A DNA stretch of 64,000 bases from Octopus vulgaris (Eukaryota), in assembly GCA_951406725.2 (NCBI GenBank), contig OX597815.1, forward strand, positions 75,144,001 to 75,208,000, read 5' to 3'. Below the pieces are notes generated by a model. The model saw nothing but the letters and a program-made list of their open reading frames with translations, made no database searches and was not told where the DNA came from. Positions 3,039-54,719 of this stretch are shown piece by piece (position 1 is the first letter of the stretch; every line of letters begins with the position of its first letter). The translations under genes and the position numbers were made by a program.

Positions 3039-3700
3039 AACGGGAAGCTTTATGAAAATAGACAAAAGACGAAGGCAGGTGGAAAACAAACGAACAATTG
3101 TATTAGTATGGCGCTCAGGAAATATAAATAAAACAAGTCTTTAACGTTTCGAGCCTACGCTCTTCAACAGAAAGATACACAGAGAGAAAAAAAACACAGA
3201 AAGAAGGAGAGAAAAAAATGCGTGCAGTAGCTAACGAATCAACATGGCGATCTGATTTCGGCCAGAGGTCAAAGATCAAACATGAGACGCGAGAGCGAAA
3301 TAAGGGGAGATAATAGGGTTGATAATAGGGTTGATAATAGAGTTGAAGGACCAGCTAATAGTGCGTAGGAGGGGTCTGGACGTGTGTATGTATAGGGTTG
3401 GTGTATGTATTAGTATGTATAAGGGTGTGTGTGTGTGTGTGTGTGTATGAGAGAGTATTAGTGCGTAGGATTGGTCTGGACGTGCGTATGTATGGGGTTG
3501 GTGTATGTATTAGTATGTATTAGTATGTATTAGTACGTATTAGTATGTATAAGTGTGTGTGTGTGTGTGTGTGAGAGAGTATAAGTGCGTATGAGGGGTC
3601 TGGACGTGTGTATGTATAGGGTTGGTGTATGTATTAGTATGTATTAGTATGTATTAGTACGTATTAGTATGTATTAGTTGGTGTATGTATTAGTATGGCA
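3039..3700 (-). mobile_element. Penelope-like element 3' tail (CA-rich tandem subrepeats plus terminal hammerhead)
   Basis: Three ~100-120-bp subrepeats (gtgcgtagga..tctggacgtg) next to an HHR and a CCTGAGCG..TAATAC motif homologous to the tail at 43897-44020, which follows a GIY-YIG C-terminus. Confidence 0.6.
3138..3175 (-). ncRNA. Minimal hammerhead ribozyme variant (PLE type)
   Basis: Minus strand reads UCUUU-CUGUUGA-A-GAGC-GUAG-GCUC-GAAA-CGUU-AAAGA; stems I and II pair; A6U core change. Confidence 0.6.
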
Positions 3701-4518
3701 CATCATATATGATGTGATGTGTAAAGTCGTGTGGTGTAGTGAGGAGAAGAGGGGGAGGGGGAGAAGAGGGGGGAGAGAAGGGGAGGGGAAGAAGAGGGGG
3801 AGGAGAGGGGGAAGAGGAGAGGAGGGGGAGAGAGAGGAGGGGGAGAAGGAAGGGATATATATATATATATATATATCTGTATATGAAACACATTTTATTG
3901 ATTTATTTATATATTTTATCATTTGTTTACTTTTCTATTGAGTTTCTTTTTTCTTTCTATTTGTCTCTTTTCTTTTCCCTGGATTGTGAAACTTTTTGCT
4001 CCAACACTCGATTCTCTGTCAATTTAATTATTCCTTTTTAAATATATTATTGACTTCTTTTTTTTTGTTTTTTTTTTGTTTTGCTCCGATAGCAATAGTA
4101 ACGACCGTTTTAAACATATATGCACACATACATATATATATATATACATACATGCCTACGCATATATATATATATATATATATTATAGACAGAATGAAAA
4201 TGACTGGATGAAAGGATTGTACAGGTCATTTCTAAATGTGTGCTTAATAATAAATAAATGAATGAATGAACAGTGGGTTTATTTTTTTTATAATTCACTT
4301 TACTATCATGTGGGAAACATTGACTGCCACTACAAACTATTTCCACACCTTCTATATATTTGTGGCTCCAGGCTAATTTGTAAAAAGTAAAACGATGTAG
4401 CAACTGTAAAAAGTAAAACGATGCAGCCTCTGTATATAAATAAACATTGACAAAGTGGGTGTACATCAAAGAAATATAAGTAAACGTCATATAAGATCAA
4501 TTTCTACACACACAAGGC

Positions 4519-4862
4519 ATACATACATACATACATACATACATACATACATACATACATACATGCATACATGCATACATACATACATACATACATACAT
4601 ACATGCATACATACATACATACATACATACATACATGCATGCATACATGCATGTATACATACACACATACATGCATACATACATACATGCATACATACAT
4701 ACATACATACATACATACATGCATACATGCATGTATACATACACACATACATGCATGCATACATACATACATACATACATACATACATGCATACATACAT
4801 GCATACATACACGCATACATACATATACATACATACATACATACATACATACATACATACAT
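4519..4862. repeat. (TACA)n/(TGCA) compound microsatellite
   Basis: Seen directly; one of dozens of TATG, TA, CA, TAA, TAG and TATC arrays in the window. Confidence 0.95.
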
Positions 4863-5281
4863 AAGCGTTGTGTTGTGTATGCGTGTCGAGTGTGTATGTG
4901 TGTGTATTGTGTGTATGCGTCTATGTGTAGTGTGCATTTTGTGTGTGTGTGTGTGTGTGCTAATGTGTACGTGTGCTAATGTGTGTGTGTATGTGTGTAC
5001 GCACGCGCATGTGATAGCATTTTAAATGAAGTGCTCTACCTCCTTTACATGAACTGAATCTACGTCGGGATCTATTTTGGTTTGTTCTTTGTGTGCGTGT
5101 ATGTGTGTTTACACACACACACACACGCATATACACACATATATACACATACATATATATATACTTACACAAATATACATATGCGTATATACTTATATAT
5201 GCGTAATATACATACGTACGTGTATATATTGTATAAATTTAAATATATTCATATGTATTCTTTTGTTCTTTTGTTCTTTTG

Positions 5282-51167: not shown

Positions 51168-51824
51168 AAAGAATGTAGGTGAAAAGTATATCGGTGTCTA
51201 TTATGTAGGCCTCACTATAGTAAGGCGTGATTTCAGAACCTCATTGTGATGACAGTTCCTTCGAGTCTGAAGATTATGAAGAAGAGCGGTATGCCTTTAA
51301 GTGGCTAAGTAAACTGATCCTTAACCCTACATGGTTCCTCTCCTTGCCTGCGGTTAGTAAGTTTAAAGTGGGAGCTAGTCCGCGTTATCCGATTCCACTC
51401 TTTAGACTTGGAGGTCTGACTGTAGTGGCTCATCGGGTTAAGACTGTGGCGGTGACCAACAAACTGTAGATCTTACAGTGGTGTGGCCTTCTGGGTGAAT
51501 TGCCTTACAGGGCCGGAGGGCTCGACTTATTCTGGAATTGCCGGAACGGTGTGAAAGAGACTCTACTCGTTGACTTGCTATCGCGGTCGACTCCTCTAGC
51601 ATTTTCTTTGCAATGGTACTCATAAGGCTGTGAGGATTTGCGCTTGGAGTTTCTTCCATAACATGCAAATTAACCCTTAACTGGGACCCTGATAGATGCT
51701 ACTACTCTGGGTCAGAGTGGACCTGGGATTAATAGTGGCTAAGAGATGGCTTCACACTTCCCTAAACCTTAGAACTCACGAATTAAAGCCCCACTACTCG
51801 ATGCAGTTTAAAATCATACCCAGG
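51168..51824 (-). mobile_element. Unclassified GC-richer repeat, possibly a LINE 5'UTR derivative
   Basis: Its minus-strand start (gattttaaactgcatc..cccaggtccactc) also occurs in diverged form at 19951-20160 (+). Confidence 0.35.
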
Positions 51825-53929
51825 TCTTAATTAGGACATAATTAAATATTTCTGTAAAACATTTTATTCCACAGTCTGGCATCTTGGAAATTTCAGTGCT
51901 ATTTCCTGCCGGCTTCAACAAAAGATTGAAATCGCGTTGGGTTCCTCCATTTTCTTGGATTTTATGATTTTTATCTTTAGAACTAACCTCCTAAAATAAA
52001 ATAGAAAGAACTTTCTATTACCAGACAAATTATTCAGTACGTTTTCTTAAGCAATATTATTCAAAGAATTTTTTATAGTGTGGCTTTTTTGATGTTTACC
52101 GACAGATTAATGTCGAAAGAGAAATACAGACATATCTATTGAAAGCCGATGTGTAATTAAGCATCTCTTTATTATTGACTGATGTGTCATCGTTGGACAC
52201 TACTACTACTACTACTACTACTACTACTACTACTACTACTACTACTACTACTACTACTACTACTACTACTACTTGTAGTATTATGTGTTTTTCTTGCTTT
52301 TCTTTCTGTTTTCGGTGTGGTGTTCAAATTAGTTCAAATAGTGTTGTTGTCATCCTCTTTGTCTTATTTTCTCTTTATTTACCACTACCACCACTGCCGC
52401 TCCGCCGCCACCGCCGCTCCGCAACCGCTGCTGCTGCCGACTACTACTACTATAGCGATGGCACGTGACCCATTTGTTAGGGTGTTGGGCTCACGACCAT
52501 AGGCTCGTGGGTTCGATTCCTTGAAGTAGCGCAGTAGCAGAATGTATCCTTGAGCAAGGTACATCATAACACGCTGTCTCACCATTCTGTTGCTGCATTC
52601 TGTATATATACATTTTGAAAGGACACCAATCAATCACGAAATTACGTGTAGGACAGCTAGCGAGCTTCACAGTCATCACTAATAGCACTTCAGCTCCTTA
52701 CAGATGAACTAAGTCTTATAAAGCAGTTTGTCATGGACAAGGCTCAGTTCCCTGTGCACTCCAGAGGACCAACATTTCGTTCGACCATTTGGTCGGCACT
52801 CTATTGCCTCGAACAGCTGTGACTCTTATACTTGAAATCAACAGAGACAAAAAAAAAAAAAAAAGAAAAAAAAACAGAAAAAAAAAACATTGTATCTGCC
52901 AAAAGTTTTCTCTACAATGATACATCTTATTCTTTTGCCAATTCCCCAGTCAATCAAATAGTTTTCGTCAATGTCGTTATGATTTGGCGTCTTCGTCTCA
53001 GAAACTTTACTTCTTTCAAGAATTGATGGAAGAGAACAGTCAGAGAAATTTTCCTACAAATATCTTATCTCAAATTAGTCCTCTCAAAAATTCTTAAATG
53101 TTATTTTATTGCTAACTGTTTTCCTGGTTACTGATAATCGAATGTATTCTATTGTCGATTATCGCCGAAATATATTGATAGCTTTCTTCATTGAAGCACA
53201 AATCAAATAACAAACTGCTTCCACCCCAATAGTGTTGTGAATATATTACCGTCTTTTGACACGGAAATAGTAAATATGGTAGAATAAAGGTTAACTGCCA
53301 TTGAACCATAACAACAACTTCATTTCGATTCTTAATTGCAGCCATTTTATTAGTTATGTATATATGCACGTGGGAAAGATACAACCGCCTTAACATCACT
53401 GCATCGAAATCCTATCAAGTATCTAAGGTGTGAAGTGGACACATTTGACTCAGCTTTACTATCGTTGCTCAATGTTGTGTAGACTTTGTTTTGGCCTCTA
53501 CTATCTTTGTGAATACTGGCCATGTAGGATCTTATACAATGGAAACGTTTACAGCTTAACAGACAACACAGACCACTCAGCTGCATTGGTATTACTGGTA
53601 AAGACACACGACATGAGATTGAATCACTTACAAAGCTAATAGGGATAAAGGTGTGGTGATTCCTGACGCGTTCTCATGAAATGCATCTTGGTTGCGATCG
53701 CTTGAAGAAGAAACAGATAATTTGAAAGGTATAATTTTGTAGCACACATACGCACGCGCATACACACATTTACATACATATATGTGCATATATATTACAT
53801 ATATATGTATATAGGCATGTTTATATATATATATATATATATATATATATATATGTATATTTTATTGTATATACGTGCATATATGTGTGTGTGTATATAT
53901 ATATGTATATATATATATATATATATATA

Positions 53930-54719
53930 TATAATTAATTAATAAGGGTGAGAGAATTAGATACTAATTTAATAGTATATTTATTCAACACCAAGTGGCC
54001 TAGTGCTCCGAGAAACCTGGATTATTATAATATTTTATAACATATTATAATATTTTTACAAAATAAATATAAGAGAGTGGTCACTATATTGCTCACTCTA
54101 GCACCAGTTAATCCAAAAGGTTTCAACCACGAAAATACATGTTTCCCATGAAAGTCAGTACGATTGTTAGCTCACACGGACAGGGCAAATAAAAAATAAC
54201 AAAAATACAGATTATTTTGGGACAATTGTTTCGCTATTAATGAATTAAATGTAATTTTACTTACAAAAAATCCATTTGTAGCTCGTCAGCCAAGACTATC
54301 TGGATGAAATCCACTCAATCACACGCCAGATTTTACCATAACGATAAATACGCGTGTGGTTCAATTGATTACATCCGACGTTATAATTCAAAATGCCCCA
54401 ACCAACAGCGCGCCAAACTTTCACGGAAAACAAATACAGCATTTAGAAATAAATGCAGCATAATTATAATTAATTAATAAGGGTGAGAGAATTAGATACT
54501 AATTTAATAGTATATTTATTCAACACCAAGTGGCCTAGTGCTCCGAGAAACCTGGATTATTATAATATTTTATAACATATTATAATATTTTTACAAAATA
54601 AATATAAGAGAGTGGTCACTATATTGCTCACTCTAGCACCAGTTAATCCAAAAGGTTTCAACCACGAAAATACATGTTTCCCATGAAAGTCAGTACGATT
54701 GTTAGCTCACACGGACAGG
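53930..54719 (-). mobile_element. Retrozyme-like element B: 1.5 copies of a 535-nt unit with a canonical hammerhead
   Basis: 255-bp direct repeats at 53930-54184 and 54465-54719 (no mismatch seen by eye), in (TA)n, non-coding, HHR in the unique part. Confidence 0.8.
54208..54302 (-). ncRNA. Type I hammerhead ribozyme with intact core and extended stem II
   Basis: Minus strand reads CAGAU-AGUC-UUGG-CUGACGA-GCUA...UAGC-GAAA-CAAUUG-UC^CCAA-AAUA-AUCUG; predicted cleavage between 54221 and 54220. Confidence 0.85.

Follow-up and report, generated by a model that had tools for sequence, protein, structure and literature searches.

The DNA analysed here, a 64-kb window of the Octopus vulgaris genome (contig OX597815.1), contains several hammerhead ribozyme (HHR) motifs alongside coding remnants of Penelope-like elements (PLEs), which raises the question of whether the motifs are real and which elements they belong to. 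The first-pass annotation had claimed at least seven HHR or HHR-like motifs and proposed motif frequency relative to shuffled sequence as a check. A type I HHR descriptor was used, comprising stem I, a core with C3-G8 or U3-A8, stem II, GAAA, helix III and NUH. Block-wise dinucleotide shuffles served as the null, 655 with 200-nt blocks and 666 with 1-kb blocks, and gave similar values. The strict tier yields three matches against a shuffle mean of 0.02 (maximum 1), the relaxed tier six against 0.45 (maximum 4); both counts exceed every one of the 1321 shuffles. The eight loose-tier matches (mean 2.16, maximum 8) are alone scarcely above chance, and requiring a stem I of at least 4 bp leaves seven against 0.85 in shuffles (maximum 4-5). 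Seven HHRs were accepted (H1-H7) and two decayed motifs, H4b and H8, which the descriptor missed, were added by eye; the claimed number therefore stands, as does the frequency check in the strict and relaxed tiers.

A loose match at 59333-59421, which lies in a GAT/GGT repeat and has weak stems, was dropped. A wider descriptor allowing two mismatches also missed H4b and H8, and H7 exceeded its loop limit; in the window it gives no convincing extra motif: 16 matches score at least 5, and the null averages 6.1 and reaches 17. A match at 63698 on the minus strand (score 9, two core mismatches) was rejected. Rfam gives no hammerhead match in the window at the gathering threshold, and in E-value mode no hammerhead is among the 150 of 336 matches listed, which include only microsatellite-driven miRNA matches.

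It is extremely improbable that the motifs arose by chance or that misassembly produced the H7 repeat. The loose-tier count does overlap the shuffle maximum and the terminal repeats of H7 are 100% identical, but the strict and relaxed counts, the presence of H2 with a target-site duplication (TSD) and diverged repeats, and the placement of the HHRs relative to the PLE ORFs, which agrees with the published pattern, all speak against this. The HHRs are confirmed as motifs from sequence, and their self-cleavage is predicted.

The core C3-U4-G5-A6-N7-G8-A9 (or U3-A8) with G12-A13-A14 is present in four of the seven (H3, H4, H5, H7). H1 and H6 deviate at position 6 and H2 at position 4, and neither H4b nor H8 passes the type I core test. 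An open-ended stem I of 4-6 bp and a stem II of at least 3-4 bp can form in all seven HHRs. The active fold is the MFE structure in none, and within the monomer 0-2 bp of helix III are possible in each.

Table 1. Ribozyme motifs and their host elements in the window (positions count from its first letter).
Feature	Position	Strand	Basis and characters
Solo 3' end, ACGU PLE family, carries H1	3040..3855, approximate	-	Alignment to H6 end, flanks, translation
HHR H1, minimal type I	3138..3175	-	Core CUGUUGA (U at position 6), helix III ACGU
H2 target-site duplication	20763..20773 left, 21238..21248 right	.	11 bp, CATAAAATAGG; flank comparison
H2 retrozyme-like non-coding element	20774..21237	-	353-nt unit x1.31, one HHR
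HHR H2	20985..21029	-	Core CCGAUGA (C at position 4), helix III ACUCGAGU, GUC triplet
Solo 3' end, diverged ACGU subfamily, carries H3	22500..23560, approximate	+	CA-rich tract, HHR, tail
HHR H3	23421..23455	+	Canonical core CUGAAGA, helix III ACGU
PLE-A 3' pseudo-LTR, contains H4b	23609..23909	-	Self-comparison, alignment
Dead HHR H4b	23729-23760	-	ACUAGU; GAAA changed to GGAA
PLE-A coding remnant	24530..25663	-	RT C-terminal part, CX4CxxC linker, GIY-YIG
PLE-A 5' pseudo-LTR, partial tandem	25847..26131	-	77% to 3' pseudo-LTR
Inverted 5' piece of PLE-A, carries H4	26206..26315	+	89% to 3' pseudo-LTR, inverted
HHR H4	26206-26249	+	U3-A8 core UUGAUAA, helix III ACUGGU
Short element between TA runs, carries H8	27996..28125, approximate	-	Sequence inspection, fold
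Decayed HHR H8	about 28035-28090	-	ACAAUUGU-C and stem I kept, 5' core lost
PLE-B coding remnant	28166..29374	+	402 stop-free codons; RT from GxAMG motif onward and GIY-YIG
HHR H5, PLE-B 3' end	29993..30034	+	U3-A8 core UUGAAAA, helix III AACCGGUU, UUU triplet
PLE-C, probable C-terminal half of Neptune/Naiad-type GIY-YIG endonuclease	43030..43230	+	Translation, motif likeness
HHR H6, 3' end of PLE-C	43897..43932	+	Core CUGUUGA, helix III ACGU
H7 retrozyme-like non-coding element	53934..54719	-	535-nt unit x1.47, inserted in (TA)n
HHR H7	54217..54293	-	Canonical core CUGACGA, extended stem II, helix III ACAAUUGU, GUC triplet

Five of the seven HHRs are PLE 3' ends, three in cis with a coding remnant and two as solo ends of one such family. 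A profile built on 120 homologues detects two PLE coding regions, 24530-25663 on the minus strand (PLE-A) and 28091-29362 on the plus strand (PLE-B). Each has RT and, C-terminally, a GIY-YIG domain in one ORF, the criterion for EN+ PLEs. PLE-A matches the profile with an E-value of 4e-78 and PLE-B by tblastn with 2e-59; the coding part of PLE-A is 5'-truncated and contains stops and frameshifts. PLE-A has two pseudo-LTRs, the 5' one with its HHR helix III region deleted, and an inverted piece; this layout of a partial tandem with an inverted 5' copy has been described for PLEs. PLE-B is 5'-truncated at a TA run, has a Pfam GIY-YIG match (E-value 1.3e-4) and 132 homologues, and ends in one HHR-bearing 3' end. 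In two PLEs of the same clade from other records an HHR or HHR core directly follows the ORF, with differing palindromes. An impression of homology between the tails of PLE-A and PLE-B failed, as 188 of 300 shuffles were equally good. Weak Pfam matches on short frames (E-values 0.001-0.05) were taken as chance.

The third coding remnant, PLE-C, is frameshifted and ends in a PYGLN motif followed by a stop. It resembles the C-termini of GIY-YIG sequences given in the supplement of a paper, motif likeness being the sole basis of its assignment; the PLE profile, Pfam, the homologue search and Atlas give no match. PLE-C belongs to a repeated family with three unannotated relatives, two of them at 64-71% over 42 residues. 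Three PLE coding remnants had been claimed, and the profile bears out two of them, the third being a motif resemblance. None of the three has an intact full-length ORF; all are broken or 5'-truncated, and for this reason the window contains no helper PLE.

The end of PLE-C that carries H6 is related to two solo ends. The end with H1, which comprises a low-complexity 3' UTR, the HHR and a tail of about 100 nt with TA runs on both sides, is 79% identical to it over 113 nt and has no coding part on translation. The end with H3 aligns to the H1 and H6 ends better than all 300 shuffles. H4 and H4b, H5 and H6 either follow coding remnants downstream in sense orientation or belong to the inverted 5' piece of PLE-A, and H1, H3, H6 and PLE-A terminate about 95-130 nt beyond the cleavage site. 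The H8 insertion is probably PLE debris as well; its element matches none of the PLE ends in the window, and H8 has its palindrome, with no wider similarity, in common with H7.

H2 and H7 lie in retrozyme-like elements. Repeats in the window were found by masked self-BLAST. Neither element has a coding trace or a Pfam match of note (translation and Pfam), and the GC content of the unit is 0.43 in H2 and 0.32 in H7. The terminal repeats of H2 are 97.5% identical and those of H7 (251 nt) are identical, given which the H7 insertion looks recent. Both insertions are longer than one unit and cover the cleavage site, with their ends elsewhere. An active retrozyme copy has at least two consecutive HHR-bearing units; H2 and H7 have one HHR each in 1.31 and 1.47 units, and so can only be inserted derivatives.

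The circular fold of the H2 unit has z-scores of -7.7, -4.7 and -5.0 in three runs and that of the H7 unit -7.5 and -6.5, unlike the five PLE-type ends and H8 (+1.2 to -0.7). Strong folding is not unique to these units, since 4 of 84 background windows elsewhere have z below -5, and it is not strand-specific, since the H2 antisense strand folds equally well (z -7.9). The H7 HHR itself folds with z -3.45. A helix between the unique and repeated parts of H7 is bettered by none of 150 shuffles; the H7 whole-segment duplex does not discriminate (-77.2 against a null of -75.4), and the ungapped-helix test of H2 is negative (147 of 150 shuffles equally good). Compared with the five PLE-type ends of the window, H2 and H7 have no convincing similarity to them, staying inside the shuffle range in eight of ten pairs and lying marginally above it in two.

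Could H2 and H7 nevertheless be partial-tandem pseudo-LTR fragments with ORFs outside the window, so that all nine motifs are PLE termini? Partial tandems are normal in PLEs, and Xenopus retrozymes are homologous to pseudo-LTRs, so that the two grade into each other. This is unlikely, because the unit of a PLE tandem would contain an ORF and the units here, of 353 or 535 nt, show no trace of coding sequence, and because these units fold strongly whereas the PLE ends of the window do not.

The target sites bear on the question of which enzyme inserted these elements. The TSD of H2, which exceeds the 4 bp used to recognise retrozymes, is clean and discrete and lies in unique AT-rich DNA outside any microsatellite; a TSD of H7 is unreadable within (TA)n. 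Flanks of (TA)n are common to H7, PLE-B, PLE-C, H1 and H8 and occur in 0.4% of random segments, a comparison inflated by boundaries that were partly set by TA runs. The first-pass annotation had named insertion features matching those of PLEs as a check; H7 has (TA)n as its target in common with the PLE copies, and H2 has the 11-bp TSD. An 11-bp TSD equally fits the endonuclease of a LINE (RTE, Dong/R4, CR1, Tx1), LINE-type RT remnants are present in the window (Pfam RVT_1 at 7631-8253) and LINEs are published as recently active in O. vulgaris. Mobilisation of H2, and perhaps H7, by a LINE instead of a PLE is distinctly unlikely, however: poly-A or a LINE-like tail is absent at the 3' ends of both, to exceed one unit while carrying a type I HHR is a PLE-like feature, and the (TA)n around H7 is a reported target of octopus PLEs. 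As H2 and H7 are non-coding they need RT in trans, for which PLEs are the likely source.

We therefore consider it likely that this is an ordinary repeat-rich window with about eight independent HHR-bearing retroinsertions, namely PLE debris and two retrozyme-like elements. The debris, certain or probable, would comprise six insertions: PLE-A, PLE-B, PLE-C, H1, H3 and probably H8. The sequence shows anatomy, folding potential and target context; cleavage, circles and the identity of the helper are inferred. In PLEs the pseudo-LTR carries a minimal type I HHR, and reverse transcription starts some 100 nt downstream. Because PLE copies are 5'-truncated, the HHR lies within the piece that most often survives, and solo HHRs accumulate. 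H2 and H7 would be non-autonomous insertions. Tandem source loci elsewhere most likely supplied the HHRs that cut their RNA down to unit length, and a host ligase would have closed it into a circle. Once a GIY-YIG endonuclease had nicked AT-rich DNA, a PLE RT would copy the circle more than once round, which would give insertions of 1.3-1.5 units spanning the cleavage site.

In this mechanism dimer cleavage would require the helix III palindromes for structural reasons, and they would drift freely from one family to another. The first-pass annotation went further and saw helper PLEs serving several rider families, with palindromes that could act as family-specific dimerisation keys. The link between HHRs and PLEs and the two non-coding elements survive from this model; helpers in the window and several rider families do not. 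All five palindromes that it reported exist, but CUAG is perfect only in the dead H4b, the sibling H4 reading CUGG, and may be a product of decay; ACUAGU and ACUGGU could both come from ACCGGU by CpG transitions. The helix III sequences do differ between PLE families, and the 8-nt palindromes pair with themselves at -6.4 to -10.7 kcal/mol and with each other mostly above -2 kcal/mol. Palindromes that differ are orthogonal in any set, however, and among 5000 draws random sets are equal or better in 18% (with ACUAGU) or 88% (with ACUGGU). Segments of H4 and H5 pair with each other at -6.5, ACUAGU and ACUGGU belong to copies of one element, and ACGU is common to diverged copies here and to PLEs of many phyla. 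In the accessible part of a cross-phylum PLE alignment ACGU is the commonest helix III, found in many unrelated PLEs (PMC4209133), and several Hydra PLE families have one common helix III. Many rider families beside helper PLEs, with palindromes selected as keys, are very unlikely. We found nothing on palindromic HHR heterodimers in the literature, which does not prove their absence from print.

Cleavage of host pre-mRNA had also been suggested. None of the 341 frames scanned in the 64-kb window contains a host exon. Minimal HHRs cut poorly (PMC4209133), and the Anolis PLE HHR depends on its protein and gave no reads at the cleavage site (PMC11167929); both speak against much cleavage.

For a genome of about 2.5-2.8 Gb, seven motifs per 64 kb would extrapolate to roughly 3x10^5 HHRs. 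If true, this would exceed the 126,247 HHRs of the axolotl genome. A bolder view, for which we see only a small chance, would make octopod genomes the most hammerhead-dense known among animals, with undescribed retrozyme families entering PLE (TA)n targets as rolling-circle copies of 1.3-1.5 units, a successful family whose U6 core is non-canonical and possibly helix III palindromes confining trans-cleavage to kin.

The general system is already published, including PLE-borne HHRs and PLE-mobilised retrozymes (2014, 2020, 2026) and the model of RT supplied in trans by a PLE. To this the window adds two well-formed retrozyme-like insertions in octopus. Our literature search met no report of a cephalopod retrozyme, only a listing of an HHR in a Hydra-clade PLE from Octopus, and the word ribozyme is absent from the main text of the 2026 O. 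vulgaris repeat annotation. H7, with its recent look, canonical core and PLE target, is suitable for testing whether PLE proteins copy retrozyme circles.

The minimal PLE HHRs of Cervera and de la Pena (2014, PMC4209133) have, as here, a short stem I and a palindromic or absent helix III, and occur mostly as solo copies of several families per genome. The extra nucleotide before stem II is also seen in H1, H3 and H6, and the U3-A8 variant of Schistosoma mansoni families has the same 7-nt cores as H4 and H5. The U at core position 6 shared by H1 and H6 does not occur among the sequences in the accessible part of that alignment; our literature search found no report of an A6U core, though its absence from print is not proven. 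PLE-A and PLE-B resemble Neptune/Nematis-type C-terminal EN+ PLEs (Craig et al. 2021, PMC8557442) in RT, CX2-5CxxC linker and GIY-YIG domain, and the window shares with these PLEs partial tandems with an inverted 5' copy, microsatellite targets and an HHR in the terminal repeat; its copies are all truncated, and clade likeness is by linker motif only. The published HHR of Hydra-1_oBim has the helix III ACCA-A-UGGU, unlike any in the window. The Anolis Poseidon PLE (Frangieh et al. 2024, PMC11167929), cut 26 nt into the ORF with RT starting 111-118 nt into it, accounts for AT-rich targets and for ends about 100 nt past the HHR; it belongs to a different clade, and its HHR acts with help from the protein and can be dispensed with for in vitro insertion. 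Metazoan non-LTR retrozymes (Cervera and de la Pena 2020, PMC7229834; Li et al. 2026, bioRxiv 10.64898/2026.07.22.740005) form arrays, whereas H2 and H7 are 1.3-1.5-mers with one HHR. The 535-nt unit of H7 is above the usual 150-450 bp and within the range of 51-972 bp. Like H2 and H7, these retrozymes are non-coding, have a GC content below 50%, a unit of a few hundred nt, a type I HHR, a highly self-paired circle (predicted here) and a proposed mobilisation by PLEs, and they share with H2 a TSD longer than 4 bp.

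Two elements in the window, each with one hammerhead ribozyme (HHR; H2 and H7), are good retrozyme-like insertions, and the remaining motifs are mostly debris of Penelope-like elements (PLEs). The first-pass annotation had proposed several non-coding riders; the term fits these two only. The H2 element is a 464-nt insertion with an 11-bp target-site duplication (TSD) and contains a 353-nt unit 1.31 times. The H7 element is a 786-nt insertion in (TA)n, in which a 535-nt unit is present 1.47 times and the 251-nt repeats are identical. In both elements the cleavage site is crossed once and the ends are located at other points, so the template must have been a circle or an uncleaved multimer. 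Having a single HHR, neither locus is able to release its own unit, and both fall short of the two consecutive units by which Li et al. 2026 (bioRxiv 10.64898/2026.07.22.740005) recognise an active copy.

Folded as circles, the H2 and H7 units give z scores of -4.7 to -7.7, and the five PLE-type ends together with the decayed HHR H8 give +1.2 to -0.7. Scores below -5 occur in 6 of 84 background windows, two of which overlap H2 or H7 and four of which are other structured repeats. H7 has a helix between its unique and repeated parts that is matched by none of 150 shuffles; H2 has no such helix in the same test. Neither element has convincing homology to the PLE ends of the window. Of the other strongly self-paired repeats (Table), those at 38125-38477 and 42348-42766 are long inverted repeats, which by eye we take to be MITE-like.

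Features of the window and their positions
Feature	Position	Strand	Content
LINE-like region	12620-15050		degraded coding region, split by Mariner remnant
Mariner remnant	~13500-14150		Pfam Transposase_1 and DDE_3
Second Mariner-like remnant	~11580-12370		found by eye
Direct repeat	18610-18883		~140 nt, 69% identical; no accepted HHR
Self-paired repeats	38125-38477, 42348-42766, 18004-18356, 49774-50126		z -5.6 to -12
(CA)n tract	23560-23609		tails of H3 element and PLE-A meet
PLE-A	23609-26315	-	broken ORF; 3' pseudo-LTR, RT-linker-GIY-YIG ORF, 5' pseudo-LTR, inverted 5' piece
Exon-like stretch	27117-27300	-	AG and GT at borders, coding-like composition, in-frame stop; no Pfam match
H8/PLE-B junction	27996-28165		H8 head-to-head with truncated PLE-B 5' end, TA tract between
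PLE-B ORF	28166-29374	+	402 stop-free codons; starts mid-RT at TA run
PLE-C	43030-43230	+	frameshifted; reads like GIY-YIG domain end
CUGUUGA core, H1	3164-3170	-
CUGUUGA core, H6	43901-43907	+

A descriptor of type I HHRs gives three strict, six relaxed and eight loose matches, against means of 0.02, 0.45 and 2.16 in shuffled controls; this enrichment is somewhat flattering, as the descriptor was devised after the motifs were seen and requires a palindromic helix III. The excess over shuffled sequence on which the first-pass annotation depended holds at the strict and relaxed tiers, whose counts are reached by none of 1321 shuffles, and not at the loose tier, whose count is. Seven motifs were accepted, one loose match in a triplet repeat was discarded, and the decayed H4b and H8 were added by eye. 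Rfam detects none of the seven accepted motifs at its gathering threshold. The core is intact in four of them: H3 and H7 are canonical, and H4 and H5 (from the remnants PLE-A and PLE-B) have U3-A8 covariation, which is known in Schistosoma PLEs (PMC4209133). Of the others, H2 has C at position 4, and position 6 is U in both H1 and H6. In the monomer, helix III could form no more than 0-2 bp, cleavage would therefore need dimers, and this requirement is published for such HHRs (PMC4209133).

The motifs with helix III ACGU (H1, H3 and H6) are best read as the 3' ends of a single PLE lineage, because the H1 and H6 ends are 79% identical and the H3 end aligns with both, scoring above all 300 shuffles. 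As two copies no closer than this have the same non-canonical core (Table), U6 in H1 and H6 suggests a family state, not decay. No report of an A6U core was found in the literature searched, and earlier HHR surveys may cover U6 cores. H6 lies downstream of the probable coding remnant PLE-C on the same strand, after a CA-rich tract. PLE-C has relatives at 71% and 64% and resembles the Naiad endonuclease ends seen in the Craig et al. supplement (PMC8557442); profile, Pfam, homologue and Atlas searches gave no support for its identity as an endonuclease.

The CUAG motif of the first-pass annotation exists and is part of the coding PLE-A. The HHR copy in the 3' repeat of PLE-A is dead (H4b, ACUAGU), that in the 5' repeat is deleted, and that in the inverted piece is intact (H4, ACUGGU). 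The inner palindrome in PLE-B is ACCGGU, from which ACUGGU differs by one CpG transition and ACUAGU by two, and the five palindromes may really be four, a reading taken from two copies. H5 lies ~620 nt downstream of the PLE-B stop. H8, in which no homology to the PLE-B end was found, could be a separate insertion beside PLE-B or a template switch onto foreign HHR RNA. The shared (CA)n tract suggests that one microsatellite target was used repeatedly by the H3 element and PLE-A.

The proposal that palindromes are family-specific keys is not borne out. Self-pairing is stronger than cross-pairing for most palindrome pairs, as is true of any differing palindromes, and 18% or 88% of 5000 random sets, depending on the version of PLE-A used, are at least as orthogonal; with five families this test has little power in either direction. 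ACGU predominates in a cross-phylum alignment of PLE HHRs (PMC4209133), and one helix III is reported as common to several Hydra families. Two same-clade PLE loci found in other records also carry an HHR or its core downstream of the ORF: the motif is complete in L002, with AACGUU, and in L001 there is a core whose stem I is weak. Judged by sequence, palindromy is kept and the palindrome itself varies. The two contigs (L001:1199-3700 and L002:1-1895) are in bacterial genome records, code animal-type PLEs and probably represent eukaryotic DNA that contaminated the assemblies.

The window is animal DNA rich in microsatellites, and its repeat debris is of SINE, LINE and Mariner type. Among named proteins, those nearest to its PLE proteins come from Argonauta hians (54%) and Octopus bimaculoides (72% with PLE-A across 206 residues), which suggests an octopod host. 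A Pfam scan of all 341 eligible frames (stop-free, unmasked, non-low-complexity, at least 45 codons) revealed no host exon, and matches with E <0.001 are to mobile-element domains only. The exon-like stretch is possibly a decayed gene or transposase.

PLE RNA would be copied into AT-rich nicks from a start ~100 nt beyond the HHR, as demonstrated for an Anolis PLE (PMC11167929), and 5' truncation would leave many solo HHR ends. The tails past the HHR in the PLE-type ends of the window (95-130 nt) agree with this start. Retrozyme RNA would come from source arrays elsewhere, be cut and then circularised, and the circle would be copied for more than one round, probably by PLE RT, as in the published model (PMC7229834; bioRxiv 10.64898/2026.07.22.740005). 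Insertion features give indirect support to the expected likeness to PLEs for H7, which has TA flanks in common with four PLE-type insertions (such flanks occur in 0.4% of random segments), a comparison partly dependent on boundaries set by TA runs; the TSD of H2 is compatible with PLE and LINE alike and does not discriminate. The link between HHRs and PLEs is correct, and the helper is missing: no PLE remnant is complete, so the window is without one.

Published evidence is unfavourable to the suggestion that such HHRs cut host pre-mRNA. Minimal HHRs have low activity (PMC4209133), and the Anolis PLE HHR is described as protein-dependent, with no reads at the cleavage site (PMC11167929). In the retrozyme literature one of nine Xenopus dimers tested cleaved, and Xenopus retrozymes are depleted in introns, the available text giving no strand analysis (PMC7229834; bioRxiv 10.64898/2026.07.22.740005). 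A density of one motif in 9 kb would be high compared with reported genome totals (X. tropicalis ~9,000, Acropora >6,000, axolotl 126,247; PMC4209133; PMC7229834; bioRxiv 10.64898/2026.07.22.740005), but this window was singled out for its HHRs. Octopus PLEs are described as expanded and recently active, with 31 families. The general kind of element is already known, and the window adds new members to it.
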